A stretch of DNA of 64,000 bases from Escherichia coli (GTDB lineage Bacteria; Pseudomonadota; Gammaproteobacteria; Enterobacterales; Enterobacteriaceae), in the NCBI RefSeq assembly GCF_030384885.1, contig NZ_CP128613.1. One strand, given 5' to 3'. Within the stretch, counting starts at the first letter, position 1; each line of letters starts with the position of its first letter. Positions 4,980-8,086 of the stretch are shown here, piece by piece. The notes below the pieces were generated by a model, which saw only the letters and a program-made list of their open reading frames with translations, ran no database searches and was not told the DNA's origin. Position numbers and translations under genes: made by a program.

Positions 4980-5083
4980 GCCTGATGCGCTGCGCTTATC
5001 AGGCCTACCAATAAACTGCAATATGTTGAATTTGCACGACTTTGTAGGCAGGATAAGGCGTTCACGCCGCATCCGGCATGAAC
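4980..5083. repeat. REP/BIME palindromic units in the fdhE-yiiF convergent intergenic region
   Basis: Sequences gcctgatgcgctgcgcttatcaggcctac and gtaggcaggataaggcgttcacgccgcatccggcatgaac match the enterobacterial REP consensus. Confidence 0.7.
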
Positions 5084-5127
5084 AACTCGCACGTTGTCAG
5101 CAATCTGATTGATATCATTTTTTCCCA

Positions 5128-5346
5128 TTACCATTCCTCGCGCAGCTTACGCTGGTATTCGACACCATCTTCCTCACATCCTTGCCAGATGCCAAAAGCA
5201 CTGGTTCTTGCTGTTTGCGATTGATTTACCTGGTATTGATCTACCGCTTCCCGTAATAATTCCGCACGAGGAAGATTACACTGCACCTCAAGATCATCAA
5301 GTTGCTTAATCACCTCATTCGATAAATCGAGTAAAATTCTGCCCAT
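5128..5346 (-). CDS. yiiF: Ribbon-helix-helix (CopG-like) small protein YiiF, ~72 aa
   Basis: The 80-aa ORF contains [22 protein letters not shown]...; the internal ATG at 5346 gives the 72-aa form and sits ~7 nt downstream of a GGCAGG Shine-Dalgarno-like stretch. Paralogous to yiiE. Confidence 0.75.
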
Positions 5347-5455
5347 ATCCATACCTGCCAGAGAGTTCATAAATATCTCGCCAATATCATTTTGAATCTA
5401 TGGAGAGAAAAGTACCTTTGTCGAATGCTTAAAGAAAGTGCATTTACGTATCACT

Positions 5456-5499
5456 TTTATTTTTGCGAGGCGTTTTCCAGATATGATGTAACAGTTGCA
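5456..5499 (-). promoter_or_regulatory. Conserved cis-element copy 1 (core ttttgcgaggcgttttccaga), ~110 bp upstream of yiiF
   Basis: The 21-bp core recurs at 5901-5921 and 8021-8041 with 1-2 mismatches. Copies 1 and 2 also share the downstream acagttgca. Function is inferred, not shown. Confidence 0.4.
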
Positions 5500-5586
5500 G
5501 TTATTATAAGTTCAAGTAAAACAACCTTGTATTAATACCAGAATAAGGGCATCTGGTTTTTATATTCAAGAATAAAAAATTTTTTG

Positions 5587-5805
5587 TCATTCCTTATGCT
5601 CCTTACACTGATCATCGACCCCCACTGTCTCCCCCTTTTGCCTGCCTCCCTTTGCTTTACGCACCGGGAATTGCTGACGTTCCAGATATTGCTCTACCGC
5701 TTCGCGTAAAATTGCAGATCGTGAAACCTTACGCCAGCCCCGAAGCTTGTTCAGCCGTTTAATTGCCTCGTCTGATAAATGAAGAAAAACCGTACTCATC
5801 ACCAT
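5587..5805 (-). CDS. yiiE: Ribbon-helix-helix (CopG-like) small protein YiiE, ~72 aa
   Basis: ORF 5587..5835 begins at a TTG; the internal ATG at 5805 is preceded by AAGGTGG (5-nt spacer) and gives MVMSTVFLHLSDEAIKRLNKLRGW... (72 aa). Confidence 0.78.
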   Translation of the reverse strand: MVMSTVFLHLSDEAIKRLNKLRGWRKVSRSAILREAVEQYLERQQFPVRKAKGGRQKGETVGVDDQCKEHKE

Positions 5806-5895
5806 CGCCACCACCTTACATATATCGTTCATCAATGCATGGTGCGAAAATTACGCCGAAAATTTAATTAATAAAAGCTGATTTTTGTATCTTGT

Positions 5896-5939
5896 TTTAT
5901 TTTTGCGAGACGTTTTCCAGAAATAATGCTACAGTTGCA
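5896..5939 (-). promoter_or_regulatory. Conserved cis-element copy 2, ~90-130 bp upstream of yiiE and divergent from the 6054 gene
   Basis: ttttatttttgcgagacgttttccagaaataatgctacagttgca aligns with copy 1 over ~44 bp. Confidence 0.4.
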
Positions 5940-6053
5940 TTCCTTTCAATTATTATTGAAAAACGGTTCAGCTATCGTCAGGGATGATTTACTATTCTTC
6001 ATCAGATGCTGGCGCCCTCACAGGAAAGAAGTGGTAAATAATAAGGATGAGTT

Positions 6054-6593
6054 ATGGATGCCATGAATATGTTTTGCTCAGTAATATTTATTTTCTTTAT
6101 TGGTTTTGCATGGATCTTCGGTTACCTCATCCGCATGATGTACCCGAAAAAAATCAGCGTTTTTACCGCTCCAGGGTTTAGCGGGACCGTTACCCTGCCA
6201 AAAGCAGGAGACTACGCGGTAACTATTACACTCCCACATAATAGCGGCATTGCGTCAAACCTGCCCGGCGCGAGTTTTTATTCAGCGCAATTTAGTATAT
6301 CTACGACTGGTAGGCAGCAAGATATTGCGCTGCAAAGAACAGGGAAGTGGGGAGCTTACTCGTGTAACAAAGATTTCAGTGGCAATAATAGCCATATTAT
6401 TGGCCTGTTTCACTGTCATCAAACTCCGGCAAATTACGACATTATCTGTACTAATCCGGAGGTCATTCACGACACCTATAAAGTGGAGATCATTAACTAT
6501 ATCTCACTTGGAAAACAGATGATGAAAACCATCCCCGGTTGGATCCTTGTTTTTATTGCGATAGGGTTACTTATTATTCCGCAAGTAAGTTAA
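6054..6593 (+). CDS. Hypothetical membrane protein, 179 aa, with N- and C-terminal hydrophobic helices
   Basis: ATG preceded by AAGGATGAG (Shine-Dalgarno); hydrophobic stretches FCSVIFIFFIGFAWIFGYLI and IPGWILVFIAIGLLIIP; AT-rich; followed by a hairpin terminator. No family recognised. Confidence 0.6.
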   Translation: MDAMNMFCSVIFIFFIGFAWIFGYLIRMMYPKKISVFTAPGFSGTVTLPKAGDYAVTITLPHNSGIASNLPGASFYSAQFSISTTGRQQDIALQRTGKWGAYSCNKDFSGNNSHIIGLFHCHQTPANYDIICTNPEVIHDTYKVEIINYISLGKQMMKTIPGWILVFIAIGLLIIPQVS

Positions 6594-6623
6594 TGGCAGA
6601 GATGACTGCACTGCATCCATCGC

Positions 6624-6660
6624 AGACCGGTCAGTGCTGCCACCAACCGGTCTTTAATTT
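6624..6660 (+). terminator. Candidate intrinsic terminator after the 179-aa membrane protein gene
   Basis: Hairpin agaccgg-N16-ccggtct followed by ttaattt. Confidence 0.45.
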
Positions 6661-6939
6661 CTAGTAGTAGTAAATTTGCGGATAACAGTCCGGGAACCAG
6701 ACGATTCCTTGCGGATCATCCCCCTGCATTACCCGATAACATTGGCGTCGATCATCGGCACGACGGCGAAGCGTAGTGTAGAGCCGCTTCCATTCATGAT
6801 CGCCCGGTGTACTGTAGTTTACCCAACAATCCATTGAAGGATGACGCCATTTACCTGTGAGTGTTGGGATCCCTGAATGCTTATGCGGCTTCGCTTTACC
6901 ATTACGATCCCGGTCTTTACGCGTATTAAATGTGGACAT
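6661..6939 (-). CDS. Hypothetical protein, 92 aa
   Basis: ATG at 6939 is preceded on the minus strand by GCAGGAG (strong Shine-Dalgarno); no family recognised from sequence. Confidence 0.5.
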   Translation of the reverse strand: MSTFNTRKDRDRNGKAKPHKHSGIPTLTGKWRHPSMDCWVNYSTPGDHEWKRLYTTLRRRADDRRQCYRVMQGDDPQGIVWFPDCYPQIYYY

Positions 6940-7000
6940 TTTTAGTCTCCTGCTAAGAGTTCTAAAAATGTGCTTCCTTAAAATAGTTCATCATTTTCCC

Positions 7001-7213
7001 TTAATTCGAATAGCGTGCTTTTGCACGAATTTCCGATACGCGGGGACCATTATGATAACGTCGATGTCCACACATCCAACAAGAGCACATACAGGGAGTA
7101 CGAAAGCAAACACCTGATGCTTTTTTGCTTCCATCGCCTGCTGTGCGATAACGACGGCGGATTTTTTTTAATCGCGCCATATGATGGCGACGTTCAGCAC
7201 GATTACGGGTCAT
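7001..7213 (-). CDS. Hypothetical small basic Cys-rich protein, 70 aa (CxxxxCxCxCxxC)
   Basis: ATG at 7213 with a CAGGAG Shine-Dalgarno that lies inside repeat copy A; Arg/Lys-rich N-terminus and a Cys cluster. Could be a spurious GC-rich ORF. Confidence 0.35.
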   Translation of the reverse strand: MTRNRAERRHHMARLKKIRRRYRTAGDGSKKASGVCFRTPCMCSCWMCGHRRYHNGPRVSEIRAKARYSN

Positions 7214-7219
7214 AGCAAT

Positions 7220-7317
7220 ACTCCTGAGCAGGCGGCACTATGCCGCTTTCATAGGAGTTCTGAATGCTGGTGCTTTCTGTATGGCATAACCATGCCTCTA
7301 ACGGTTAAGTGCTTGCA
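7220..7317. repeat. 98-bp direct repeat, copy A
   Basis: About 94% identical to 9037-9134 in the same orientation; contains nested inverted repeats (ctcctg...caggag and gcggca...tgccgc). Overlaps the last codons of the HigA-like gene. Confidence 0.85.
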
Positions 7318-7588
7318 GCACATGTTGCGGATCATTGGCAATCGCTCGCAGCAAAGCCTTTGCAGGCCCGGTCGGTGAACGCCGCCCCTGCTCCCAGTTA
7401 CGCAACGTGTCTACGCTTACGGAAATAAGATCGGCAAATTTAGATTGTGACAACCCTGAAGCACGGCGTATTTCTTTGATTTTCATAGCATCAACTTCAA
7501 AAGTCCGTGAAGGCTGTCGCGTTCCTTCAATAATTTCATTCATCTGGGCCATGCTGTGAGTCAACCGCTCAAAAAGTGCCTTATCCAT
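7298..7588 (-). CDS. HTH (XRE-type) antitoxin, HigA-2-like
   Basis: 96-aa ORF with a helix-turn-helix segment (IKEIRRASGLSQSKFADLISVSVDTLRNWEQGRRSP), immediately downstream of and abutting the toxin-like ORF. Confidence 0.8.
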   Translation of the reverse strand: MDKALFERLTHSMAQMNEIIEGTRQPSRTFEVDAMKIKEIRRASGLSQSKFADLISVSVDTLRNWEQGRRSPTGPAKALLRAIANDPQHVLQALNR

Positions 7589-7900
7589 TTACCACCTCGT
7601 ATTTAACAACCGGAGCATTGCTTTTTCCTGGGGAGACAGATCATCTTTAATACCCTTACGATAAATAAGCAGTAATCTGATCTCATAATGTTTAACCTGA
7701 TGAAAGTAAATAACCCTGACACCAGCACGTTTCCCCTTTTCTCCTGAGACCCATCGAACCTTTCTTAACCCACCAGTTTCAGGTATTACCTCACCGTAGT
7801 CAGGATTCAAGGCCAGGAAAAACTGAAAACGACTGAATTCATCGTCATTCAGCAGTTTTTGAACATCTTCTGGGAAAATTTCCGTTTCGATGAAGAGTAT
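7589..7900 (-). CDS. HigB-2/Gp49-family (RelE-superfamily) toxin-like ORF; no canonical start codon upstream of the conserved N-terminus; possible pseudogene or non-canonical start
   Basis: Called ORF 7589..7810 starts at a TTG. The frame stays open upstream to a stop at 7943-7945 and encodes ...VILFIETEIFPEDVQKLLNDDEFSRFQFFLA..., which resembles this family's N-terminus, but with no ATG/GTG/TTG. The 7900 boundary (an ATA codon) is a guess. Confidence 0.6.
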   Translation of the reverse strand: MLFIETEIFPEDVQKLLNDDEFSRFQFFLALNPDYGEVIPETGGLRKVRWVSGEKGKRAGVRVIYFHQVKHYEIRLLLIYRKGIKDDLSPQEKAMLRLLNTRW

Positions 7901-8015
7901 AACTGTACGCCATTGGCTTAGAGTAACAATCCTTTTTGTACGTCATTGACGTACCCCTGAAACCACTAGCTTACTGATAGTGCTACAGCAAAACCACGTC
8001 TCTGCCGAGTTTGTC

Positions 8016-8041
8016 TTTACATTTGCGAGGCGCTTTCCAGA
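8016..8041 (-). promoter_or_regulatory. Conserved cis-element copy 3 (tttacatttgcgaggcgctttccaga) in the divergent region between the toxin gene and the esterase gene
   Basis: Matches the core of copies 1 and 2 with 2 mismatches over 21 bp; flanks diverge after ccaga. Confidence 0.4.
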
Positions 8042-8086
8042 TTTTCCACGCCCGTGAATTTCCCTGTATCCATCCAGTAAAAACGG

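Follow-up and report, generated by a model that had tools for sequence, protein, structure and literature searches.

The window analysed here, a 64,000-nucleotide stretch of DNA from Escherichia coli 2013C-4282, contains a variable islet with fdhE, yiiF, and yiiE on one side and fabY on the other. In this islet, two small open reading frames (ORFs), here called p70 and p92, lie 3' of genes for a nadS-type antitoxin and a RelE-like toxin on the same strand (Table 1). The RefSeq entries for p70 and p92 are WP_000197771.1 and WP_000102977.1, both described as "hypothetical protein". Both ORFs had been noted on one strand behind AGGAG-type Shine-Dalgarno sites at the right spacing, and this was confirmed, the strand being the minus strand: the p70 site is at 7221-7225 and the p92 site at 6947-6951, each separated by a 7-nt spacer from its ATG (6937-6939 for p92). 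A scan predicted no promoter or terminator between the toxin-antitoxin genes and p70/p92, and a consensus scan of the plus strand from 5000 to 9300 gave no match to a sigma-70-type promoter. The GC-rich hairpin beyond p92 has no T-run after it on the minus strand; on the plus strand it is followed by TTTAATTT. It is likely a transcript 3' end or stabiliser, common to p92 and a convergent 179-aa gene. Two homopolymer tracts inside p70 are the sites of frameshifts in database variants.

Table 1. Features of the p70-p92 locus and its surroundings in the window.
Feature	Position	Strand	Remarks
13-bp GC-rich hairpin	6624..6653	-	8 nt 3' of p92 stop; fold -29.2 kcal/mol
p92 gene	6661..6939	-	92 aa, basic, conserved C-terminal domain; ORF
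p92 leader hairpin	6937..6970	-	predicted fold
uORF2 (MMNYFKEAHF, then stop)	6962..6994	-	start 7-10 nt after p70 stop
p70 gene	7001..7213	-	70 aa, very basic; ORF and translation
Two homopolymer tracts inside p70	7121..7169	-	A8 at 7162-7169, A6 at 7121-7126
p70 leader hairpin	7220..7258	-	predicted MFE fold; two-tier
uORF1 (MVMPYRKHQHSELL, then stop)	7249..7293	-	sequence; 5 nt after nadS stop
NadS-family HTH antitoxin	7298-7588	-	NCBIfam NF041265, E=1.2e-16; Pfam HTH_3; RefSeq annotation
RelE-like toxin	7589-7900	-	start codon ATA in source strain (start codon comparison); RefSeq annotation

The original prediction held that the ORFs may be real small proteins or else fragments of one degraded gene, and the former was borne out by purifying selection, conserved length, and synteny. 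For the ORFs, dN/dS in frame was 0.10-0.24 compared to 0.85-2.9 in shifted frames; listed by gene, the values were 0.10-0.13 for p70 between lineages with saturated dS and 0.05-0.24 for p92. The annotated frame alone was open across all 6-7 divergent lineages tested, and in three diverged alleles the products measured 70, 70, and 70 residues for p70 and 92, 92, and 95 for p92. Both genes were intact in all fetched loci, and tblastn also recovered an intact p70 in Nissle. Chance frames, or remnants of a single degraded gene, would fit the lack of a Pfam or NCBIfam match for either ORF, the omission of p70 from some annotations (Nissle among them), and the existence of frameshifted database variants. 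The substitution and frame tests and the intact copies contradict this, as does the finding that p70 and p92 belong to distinct families that each occur alone elsewhere with conserved starts and stops. A frameshift splitting one ancestral gene was likewise not borne out, since homology searches gave no homologue spanning both ORFs, and profile-profile comparison detected no homology between p70 and p92 (hhalign probability 1.5%). Weak cross-profile matches in a small database were insufficient to relate them, and two possible chimeras joining a p70-like N-terminal helix to a p92-type C-domain (P0244 and P0217) were too weak to accept (E~0.002 in 119 sequences). By these sequence comparisons, p70 and p92 are genuine, separate genes under purifying selection; the degraded-gene explanation is already refuted, and we assign it almost no probability.

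The order p70 then p92 recurs in E. coli, Klebsiella spallanzanii, K. oxytoca, Citrobacter, Mixta, Edwardsiella, Kosakonia, and a Salmonella contig, with the Klebsiella pair at the same fabY-fdhE site, and adjacency is kept across Enterobacterales with saturated synonymous sites. Among 5,426 complete E. coli genomes, 1,269 carry the whole cassette, and in about 1,186 others a scar of ~50 bp is what is left of it. Both p70 and p92 also occur alone, which speaks against taking a physical partnership between their products for granted. Adjacent toxin-antitoxin genes are confined to the p70 loci of E. coli, Klebsiella, and Pseudocitrobacter.

The p70 protein has a pI of 11.45, 20 Arg plus Lys residues, a GRAVY score of -1.17, and no hydrophobic segment. 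The expected Arg/Lys richness and Cys cluster were present, but the cysteines are spaced as C36-x4-C41-x-C43-x-C45-x2-C48 rather than beginning with C-x5-C. Only C43, C45, and C48 are invariant family-wide, C36 and C41 being lineage-specific and H10 near-invariant. The full family signature comprises R5, R8, R9, H10, R14, G34, C43-S-C45-W-M-C48-G, R52, and E61, or as a pattern RRHH..RLK...CSCWMCG(N/H)xR. A zinc-ribbon assignment did not hold up: zinc ribbons have two CxxC...CxxC knuckles with four ligands, whereas p70 has a single C-x-C-x2-C cluster and matched no zinc-ribbon sequence model or fold. Its AlphaFold model is of moderate quality (pLDDT 75.8, falling to 55-67 over the Cys loop) and gave no structural neighbour. 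Neither p70 nor p92 matched Pfam or NCBIfam, sequence and profile searches of the PDB returned non-significant matches only, and the PADLOC protein models yielded no family for either, the HTH antitoxin alone drawing generic HTH matches. The composition of p70 and its invariant Cys and His residues invite the guess that it binds zinc and nucleic acid; with low confidence, p70 may hold one zinc ion through C43, C45, C48, and H10 and act on nucleic acid, with p92 as its partner.

Homologues of p70 form at least 3,241 protein clusters that extend through Proteobacteria and beyond and include T5-like and jumbo phages and IncF plasmids, with 439 phage and 152 plasmid records. All 78 aligned relatives matched the profile phrog_4499, as did p70 of the window (E=1.7e-13 over residues 3-68; best, 9.9e-24). 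No function has been assigned to this phage protein family, and the match therefore supplies a name and not a mechanism; the family description also lacks the chromosomal and plasmid copies, leader RNA, and p92 partner seen here. Among phages, T5-like Tequintavirus genomes have members in their tRNA-rich region, and Erwinia jumbo phages have members too. On a Klebsiella IncF plasmid, leader, p70, and terminator together make up a self-contained unit. In species-representative genomes, 96 loci were confirmed, of which 80 were kept. Integrases, restriction-modification genes, and IS elements in variable islets are found among the neighbours, and over the 80 species loci no gene neighbourhood is shared except for p92 in Enterobacterales. 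Literature searches on the motif, the accessions, phrog_4499, and yiiE/yiiF with sigma-54 returned nothing relevant and no paper naming the p70 or p92 proteins; the sole 'nadS' paper found concerns a K-12 gene annotated nadS and mentions neither.

The smaller p92 family is defined by a conserved C-terminal domain. The window's protein (pI 9.6) carries W50..T56..R59 R60 A61..G73-D75-P76..P87..Y-Y at the C-terminus, and the family pattern reads ...TRPRRA..G-DPD..KPHxYYW. An exhaustive search gave 126 representatives at E<=1e-3, most of which match profile positions ~40-95 at their own C-terminus. Pfam matched none of 103 p92 relatives, and PHROGs gave one weak match only. Two large proteins matched by the p92 profile (P0210 and P0281) look spurious. 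Gene neighbourhoods of distant p92 relatives were uninformative.

The Shine-Dalgarno sites had been called strong from their sequence, and they are good sites, but the first reading overlooked that conserved hairpins are predicted to hide both of them. In the p70 leader, the outer helix is predicted to pair ACTCCT (7253-7258) with AGGAGT (7220-7225), the latter containing the p70 Shine-Dalgarno site, and the inner helix, capped by a TAG loop, to pair GCGGCA (7241-7246) with TGCCGC (7232-7237). A fold with the same two tiers but other sequences is predicted in other Enterobacterales and in Beta- and Gammaproteobacteria. Across 74 p70 leaders the median MFE z-score was -3.6, with 70% below -2, compared to a median of 0.0 and 9% below -2 for 150 control genes (Mann-Whitney p=8e-16). 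The window's own leader is modest in this respect (z = -2.55), its outer helix having 6 bp only, and about 30% of p70 homologues lack a structured leader. In alignment A9, 90.5% of cells were paired, compared to 76% in shuffles (reached by 0 of 500) and 45-62% when the alignment was slid, and 11 of 15 pairs showed double changes. The enterobacterial inner helix was 89% paired compared to 76% in shuffles (0/500); the outer helix was misaligned by one column by MAFFT, so the inner helix alone was counted formally. Enterobacterial outer helices vary in sequence and always pair with the Shine-Dalgarno site. Leader and intergenic DNA is 75-92% identical, compared to 49-59% at third codon positions.

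A covariance model, R1, was built from the leaders of Beta- and Gammaproteobacteria. In 816 kb it matched only just upstream of p70 homologues, with three exceptions (E 0.03-0.9), two of them antisense copies of true matches and one unrelated; it did not detect the enterobacterial leader variant. No family of Rfam 15, ROSE and fourU included, matched the leaders of 8 loci at gathering score or gave a leader match at E<=1 in window positions 5000-9500, and the p70 leader matched no REP family. The p70 Shine-Dalgarno site thus lies in a predicted helix kept by compensatory changes, and this leader, absent from Rfam, recurs upstream of homologues in many lineages.

Each hairpin is overlapped by a short upstream ORF. 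For uORF1, the start is likely the second ATG (7285-7287), which has GAGG 7 nt upstream; its final codons, GAA CTC CTA, overlie the anti-Shine-Dalgarno strand, and its stop, at 7249-7251, keeps its position in divergent E. coli and Klebsiella alleles (MTYRKQRHSELM and MMNRKFQYSELM, each followed by the stop). An ATG-initiated ORF crosses the 5' arm in 47 of 52 structured leaders, the frames varying between lineages. Open frames through a GC-rich leader are not rare by chance. The p92 leader is predicted to pair CATTTTTAG (6962-6970) with CTAAAAATG (6937-6945), burying both the AGGAG and the p92 ATG. Equivalent helices of other sequence are predicted in Citrobacter (GTAAGT/GCTTAC) and the Salmonella contig (GGTAAC/GTTATC), and hairpins predicted to sequester the Shine-Dalgarno site also precede the distant p92 relatives at L096, L099, and L102. 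The GGG of TAAGGGAAA precedes the uORF2 start, and the ORF ends with a TAG inside the 5' arm of the p92 hairpin. Its peptide, MNYFK(E/D)AHF, is kept in three alleles with mostly synonymous changes. What is new here is this predicted arrangement, in which both Shine-Dalgarno sites lie in conserved hairpins and each hairpin is overlapped by a short upstream ORF.

We consider it fairly probable that p70 and p92 are two separate functional genes forming an accessory two-gene cassette whose translation is gated by its leader hairpins. The hairpins are thermodynamic predictions, from which we infer the following gated, relayed mechanism. As the upstream frame crosses the 5' arm, its translation would be expected to unmask the Shine-Dalgarno site: ribosomes ending nadS or starting uORF1 would open the ACUCCU/AGGAGU helix and thereby free the p70 site. 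Ribosomes ending p70 could then restart on uORF2, 7-10 nt downstream, and uORF2 translation would open the helix over the p92 Shine-Dalgarno site and AUG. Both proteins would be made only upon translation of the upstream frame, and always in one order, by a logic like that of hok/mok or other leader-ORF coupling. A wider proposal, which we regard as speculative and rather unlikely, is that the p70 leader, with its overlapping leader ORF, stands for a riboregulator class of its own and accompanies a very widespread, wholly uncharacterised family of small zinc-binding proteins. Its members might be conditional effectors on a core nucleic-acid process, such as a toxin-like or host-takeover factor across chromosomes, IncF plasmids, and T5-like phages, with the Enterobacterales p92 a dedicated partner by translational relay.

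Gating of this kind could also serve to silence a harmful product. Hok/mok-type toxins combine an overlapping leader ORF with a sequestered Shine-Dalgarno site, and p70 could similarly act as a small toxin, or as a factor of phage origin that takes over or harms the host, with p92 as a modulator or immunity partner in an addiction- or conflict-like module. The p70 leader shows both features as far as predicted folds and ORFs go, and homologues are neighbours of integrases, restriction-modification genes, and IS elements in variable islets, or are carried by lytic T5-like and jumbo phages or by conjugative plasmids. The cassette is dispensable, given the scarred genomes, and frameshifted p70 variants occur at the homopolymers. 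However, hok-like type I toxins are hydrophobic, membrane-inserting peptides, and p70 is hydrophilic. Most p70 homologues have neither p92 nor any other conserved neighbour, the plus-strand scan matched no promoter for an antisense RNA, and no PADLOC model matched, and the strength of purifying selection, together with the frequency of intact copies, speaks against a merely tolerated gene. We judge a harmful effector to be possible but unlikely.

Still less probable, in our view, is that the RelE-like/NadS toxin-antitoxin operon has p70 and p92 as its third and fourth genes and that they act only there, for example in regulation or as co-factors. Joint transcription with toxin and antitoxin, as originally proposed, is plausible from the shared strand, the absence of a predicted promoter or terminator in between, and a uORF1 start 5 nt 3' of the nadS stop; E. 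coli and Klebsiella both keep the order toxin-nadS-p70-p92, and Pseudocitrobacter keeps toxin-nadS-p70. The pair is nevertheless not bound to those genes, each set occurring without the other. Toxin-antitoxin genes stand beside p70 in 2 of 80 species loci (L013 and L016) and in separately fetched E. coli and Klebsiella-like loci, but among the four E. coli loci displayed for the divergent allele, three (L003, L004, and L006) have p70-p92 without them; plasmid and phage copies also lack them, and the approximately 1,186 genomes that lost the cassette, O26:H11 included, retain them. Finally, the hairpins could be incidental or serve as transcript 3' ends, stabilisers, REP-like elements, or DNA-level sites. 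GC-rich intergenic hairpins are common, the Shine-Dalgarno site is not inside the inner hairpin, and a second, orphan leader copy at 9037-9134 has no gene behind it. Set against this are a hairpin position fixed relative to the start codon, an outer helix whose 3' arm is the Shine-Dalgarno site in every structured lineage despite differing sequences, the lack of a T-run after the leader hairpin, the confinement of R1 matches in 816 kb, and the absence of a REP or Rfam match, and we think such a role improbable indeed.

About a quarter of complete E. coli genomes, Nissle 1917 and ST131 included, carry two conserved small proteins that are nameless in every library. The p70 family, with its invariant Cys/His signature, spans thousands of sequences over bacterial phyla, T5-like phages, and resistance-plasmid backbones, and is so large that one E. 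coli experiment would annotate many members. The leader hairpin, supported by compensatory changes and new to Rfam, offers a concrete, testable case of translation coupled in a chain by very short relay ORFs. It also calls for caution in annotation, as a "strong Shine-Dalgarno" judged by sequence alone can mislead if structure masks the site.

Among known proteins, p70 is comparable in size to small zinc-binding basic proteins such as ribosomal protein bL36, YacG, and B-box fingers, and it shares with them a very high pI and a short Cys cluster close to a His. Those proteins have two CxxC knuckles in place of the single p70 cluster, and p70 has no significant match by sequence or fold among solved structures; the profile match of its CSCWMCG..R segment to the TRIM29 B-box is weak and non-significant (E=0.29). 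The p70 leader is like RNA thermometers of the ROSE and fourU types in its short, imperfect helix with internal loops, which pairs a pyrimidine-rich stretch with the Shine-Dalgarno site. It differs from them in its leader ORF and lack of an Rfam match, and betaproteobacterial p70 leaders, at -30 to -44 kcal/mol, fold much too stably to work as thermometers. Hok/mok coupling and leader-ORF attenuation of the ermC/cat type share with the p70 and p92 leaders a Shine-Dalgarno site hidden in a helix and a frame across the 5' arm. Unlike hok/mok, p70 has no known antisense RNA and is not a hydrophobic membrane peptide, and its leader has no sequence or Rfam similarity to either system. The arrangement predicted here also differs from both in its two chained gates, one before p70 and one before p92.

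The variable islet that separates fdoGHI-fdhE/yiiF/yiiE from fabY holds the p70 and p92 ORFs; there the minus-strand order, 5' to 3', is a RelE-like toxin, a NadS-family HTH antitoxin (nadS), p70 and p92. RefSeq labels both products hypothetical proteins; the Nissle 1917 annotation includes only p92, while tblastn showed that p70 is nonetheless intact there, as in all related loci fetched. Both ORFs translate as originally predicted, and each is preceded by the proposed Shine-Dalgarno sequence (AGGAG, a 7-nt spacer and ATG). We compared three alleles: the window, a divergent E. coli locus (L004) and a Klebsiella-like locus (L009). With dS saturated at 1.3-2.2, dN/dS was 0.10-0.13 for p70 and 0.12-0.24 for p92, and 0.85-1.8 when the same alignments were read in the two other frames. 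Lengths were conserved (p70, 70/70/70 aa; p92, 92/92/95 aa), and across six or seven Enterobacterales the annotated frame alone was stop-free in every lineage. The Klebsiella pair occupies the same fabY-fdhE position as in E. coli, and p70 is followed by p92 in K. spallanzanii, K. oxytoca, Citrobacter, Mixta, Edwardsiella, Kosakonia and a Salmonella contig. Purifying selection, conserved lengths, open frames and synteny indicate that these small proteins are real. The original prediction, correct in its observations and right only in part in interpreting them, had also allowed that the ORFs were fragments of one degraded gene. No homologue covering both was found, and profile-profile comparison of the two families gave no relationship (probability 1.5%); this reading was therefore rejected.

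Features of the p70-p92 locus and equivalent outer leader pairs in other lineages
Feature	Position	Strand	Remarks
RelE-like toxin gene	7589-7900	-	
NadS-family HTH antitoxin gene	7298-7588	-	NF041265, E=1.2e-16
uORF1	7249-7293	-	MVMPYRKHQHSELL, then stop; starts 5 nt after nadS stop
p70 leader outer helix	ACTCCT 7253-7258 / AGGAGT 7220-7225	-	predicted fold
p70 leader inner helix	GCGGCA 7241-7246 / TGCCGC 7232-7237	-	predicted fold
p70 ORF	7001-7213	-	70 aa
uORF2	6962-6994	-	MMNYFKEAHF, then stop; start 7-10 nt past p70 stop
p92 ORF	6661-6939	-	92 aa
Outer pair, Mixta			GUACUCC/GGAGUUAC
Outer pair, Pluralibacter			UACUCCCA/UGGGAGUA
Outer pair, Citrobacter			CCAUUCGG/CCGAAUGG
Outer pair, K. oxytoca			UUUCUUCAUAU/AUAUGAGGAAG
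Outer pair, Massilia			GUUACUCCA/UGGAGUAAC
Outer pair, Rhodocyclales			UUUCUUC/GGAGAAA

The ribosome-binding sites of p70 and p92 are both masked in predicted folds. Upstream of p70 homologues, DNA comparison revealed a GC-rich stem-loop whose spacing to the start codon is fixed and whose sequence varies among lineages, with pairing retained. The predicted p70 fold has two tiers, an outer helix joining an upstream CUCC-containing stretch to the Shine-Dalgarno sequence and an inner hairpin stacked upon it. The 70 nt upstream of 74 distinct homologues had a median MFE z of -3.6 (70% below -2), compared with 0.0 (9%) for 150 control genes at those loci (Mann-Whitney p=8e-16); the value for the window leader was modest (-2.55), and about 30% of homologues have no structured leader. 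In an alignment of 14 Beta- and Gammaproteobacterial leaders, 90.5% of cells were paired, versus 76% after shuffling (0/500) and 45-62% after sliding, with compensatory double changes at 11 of 15 pairs. A covariance model from these classes produced 18 strong matches over 816 kb, each just 5' of a p70 homologue, the remaining matches having E values of only 0.03-0.9; it fails to detect the enterobacterial variant. The formal count in Enterobacterales covers the inner helix (89% of cells paired versus 76% shuffled, 0/500), because a one-column misalignment left the outer helix without one. No Rfam 15 family matched the leader.

At p92, the last codons and stop of uORF2, a short ORF following p70, (CATTTTTAG) are predicted to pair with CTAAAAATG, burying the Shine-Dalgarno sequence and ATG. 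In Citrobacter and the Salmonella contig, other complementary sequences replace this helix. The p70 leader and the p70-p92 spacer are 75-92% identical between alleles that agree at just 49-59% of third codon positions. The corresponding short ORF ahead of p70, uORF1, has a second ATG with GAGG 7 nt upstream; its last codons form the anti-Shine-Dalgarno stretch, and its stop lies 2 nt ahead of the inner hairpin. Both the divergent E. coli allele and the Klebsiella allele retain its length and stop position. Elsewhere, 47 of 52 structured leaders have an ATG-initiated frame across the 5' arm of the hairpin; it usually continues through the hairpin into the first p70 codons, with the same relative frame in 31 cases. 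The leader peptide begins MRK(I/M)(I/L)..(Y/H)SE in Pantoea, Pectobacterium, Citrobacter and a K. pneumoniae IncF plasmid. The uORF2 peptide is likewise retained, its changes being mostly synonymous.

Two further arrangements of the leader were observed. A K. pneumoniae IncFII/IncR plasmid (L105, 3935-4260) carries a compact stand-alone unit of leader ORF, hairpin, p70 homologue and intrinsic-terminator-like hairpin, without p92 and adjoining a truncated IS integrase. In the window, a 98-bp direct repeat (7220-7317 and 9037-9134, 94% identical) includes a second copy of the entire p70 leader (Shine-Dalgarno sequence, hairpin and uORF1) with a nadS-like 3'-end remnant; this copy, at 9037-9134, adjoins the end of an alpha/beta hydrolase gene, has no p70 behind it, and resembles a scar left by the loss of a second p70-p92 cassette.

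No Pfam, NCBIfam or PADLOC model matched p70. It did match phrog_4499, a phage family with no assigned function (E=1.7e-13), as did 78 of 78 aligned relatives. Scanning a single genome per species gave 96 confirmed loci, distributed over Enterobacterales, Chromatiales, Burkholderiales, Rhodocyclales and MAGs assigned to Planctomycetes, Desulfobacterales, Acidobacteria, Gemmatimonadetes and Verrucomicrobia; a profile search of a large protein collection returned 3,241 clusters, none named. Homologues were present in 439 phage records (T5-like Tequintavirus, in the tRNA-rich region, and Erwinia jumbo phages) and 152 plasmid records, chiefly of conjugative Klebsiella, E. coli and Salmonella plasmids. 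Across 80 loci there was no conserved neighbour except p92 in Enterobacterales; neighbours included integrases, restriction-modification genes, IS elements and, in one clade, gyrA. In four related Chromatiales/Gammaproteobacteria loci (L040, L041, L044 and L052), the p70 homologue lies directly 3' of gyrA and its leader lacks the hairpin.

The protein is very basic, as proposed (pI 11.45; 20 R+K among 70 residues). Its family signature comprises an N-terminal basic helix (R-A-x-R-R-H-H-x2-R-L-K-x2-R), a variable linker, T-P-x-x-C-S-C-W-M-C-G-(N/H)-x-R, and a C-terminal helix with Q-E-x-R. CSCWMCG was itself a search pattern in the species scan; CSCWMCGN was found in 114 of the 120 best matches of an independent profile search, with Cys never substituted. 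The predicted Cys cluster is present, spaced C-x4-C-x-C-x-C-x2-C rather than opening with C-x5-C. Only one knuckle is present, in which three Cys are invariant, so a zinc ribbon is unsupported; conservation can reasonably be read as a putative Cys3-His zinc site that includes near-invariant H10. As a low-confidence best guess, p70 would be a zinc-stabilised nucleic-acid-binding protein partnered by p92. Within p70, A8 (7162-7169) and A6 (7121-7126) runs mark exactly where database variants are frameshifted, some carrying two shifts that compensate each other and bring the C-terminus back into frame; slippage, phase variation or homopolymer sequencing error could be the cause.

An exhaustive profile search recovered 126 p92 representatives at E<=1e-3. 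Conservation lies in the last ~50 residues, which invariably form the extreme C-terminus of 60-120-aa proteins, with the motif (S/T)-P-x-x-W-W...T-R-P-R-R-A...G-x-D-P-D...W-P...K-P-H-x-Y-Y-W. The N-termini vary and are basic (MAHYKRKKPR..., MSRTYRR...; MSTFNTRKDRDRNGK in the window protein). For this family Pfam gave no match, and PHROG and PDB none that was meaningful. Because p92 relatives exist without p70 and most p70 relatives lack p92, the pairing is an enterobacterial arrangement and not obligate. A Mixta locus (L017, 5351-5966) has two tandem p92-family copies 3' of its p70 homologue. In metagenomic loci L099-L101 (~2757-2933 in L099), the place of p70 ahead of a p92-family gene is taken by another basic Cys protein of 58 aa (MHHKRKRSKARRAGCLLCKPNK...), whose N-terminus is similar to that of long p92 relatives of the MAHYKRKKPR type.

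Co-transcription with the toxin-antitoxin pair, as originally predicted, is plausible because the strand is common, nothing is predicted between the genes, and nadS is directly followed by uORF1. Even so, the cassette and that pair are separable. Of the four divergent-allele E. coli loci shown, three have p70-p92 but no toxin-antitoxin genes, which plasmid and phage p70 copies lack as well. Conversely, O26:H11 (L104, 3001-3054) and about 1,186 complete E. coli genomes keep the toxin-antitoxin and hydrolase genes with a p70 stump made up of its initial ~50 bp alone, the rest of p70, p92 and a 179-aa gene being deleted. The complete cassette is present in 1,269 of 5,426 complete E. coli genomes, including Nissle 1917 and ST131, and the exact p70/p92 proteins on hundreds to >1,000 contigs.

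Several other features of the islet were recorded. The toxin start codon (7898-7900, -) is ATA in the window strain and ATG in Nissle 1917 and O26:H11; RefSeq annotates a full-length toxin despite the ATA, which may cripple its translation. An identical 20-nt motif, TCTGGAAA(A/G)CG(C/T)CTCGCAAA, at 5462-5481, 5902-5921 and 8022-8041 (-), sits ~90-120 nt 5' of yiiF, yiiE and the toxin gene (three matches versus 0 expected). Its TGG...GCA spacing is that of sigma-54 -24/-12 promoters, and the three copies suggest that these small operons may share a promoter or operator. The 179-aa protein (6054-6593, +), convergent with p92, has hydrophobic N- and C-terminal stretches and no family match; a homologue adjoins p70-p92 in L012, an E. 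coli islet with another gene arrangement. An unbroken 637-aa ORF (9206-11119, -), without Pfam or PADLOC match, is divided by RefSeq into 'transposase' and 'incomplete hypothetical protein'. Just 3' of fdhE, 5001-5083 matches Rfam ES036 (above gathering score) and naRNA4 (below), which we take to be REP-derived and unrelated to p70/p92.

From the leader, ORF and hairpin parts observed here, we infer, as the most probable mechanism, a translational relay running from nadS, or from independent initiation, through uORF1, p70 and uORF2 to p92, in which each passing or terminating ribosome would open the next masked start site. The p70 leader could possibly be a thermosensor; the betaproteobacterial versions are very stable, which argues against a pure thermometer. 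It is also possible that p70 binds its own leader as an autoregulatory site. The main alternative for p70 itself is a toxin-like or host-takeover role, which would fit tight gating as well as a distribution that is mobile and dispensable.

On the ordinary side, these are small hypothetical genes already in RefSeq and PHROGs. Their interest lies in a very large and wholly uncharacterised p70 family, a conserved masking structure at both genes that no RNA library holds, and a putative chained relay via very short ORFs that is directly testable in a tractable organism. The proposed relay has its logic in common with hok/mok coupling and leader-ORF attenuators; it has no sequence relationship to either, and p70 and p92 would apply that logic twice in series.
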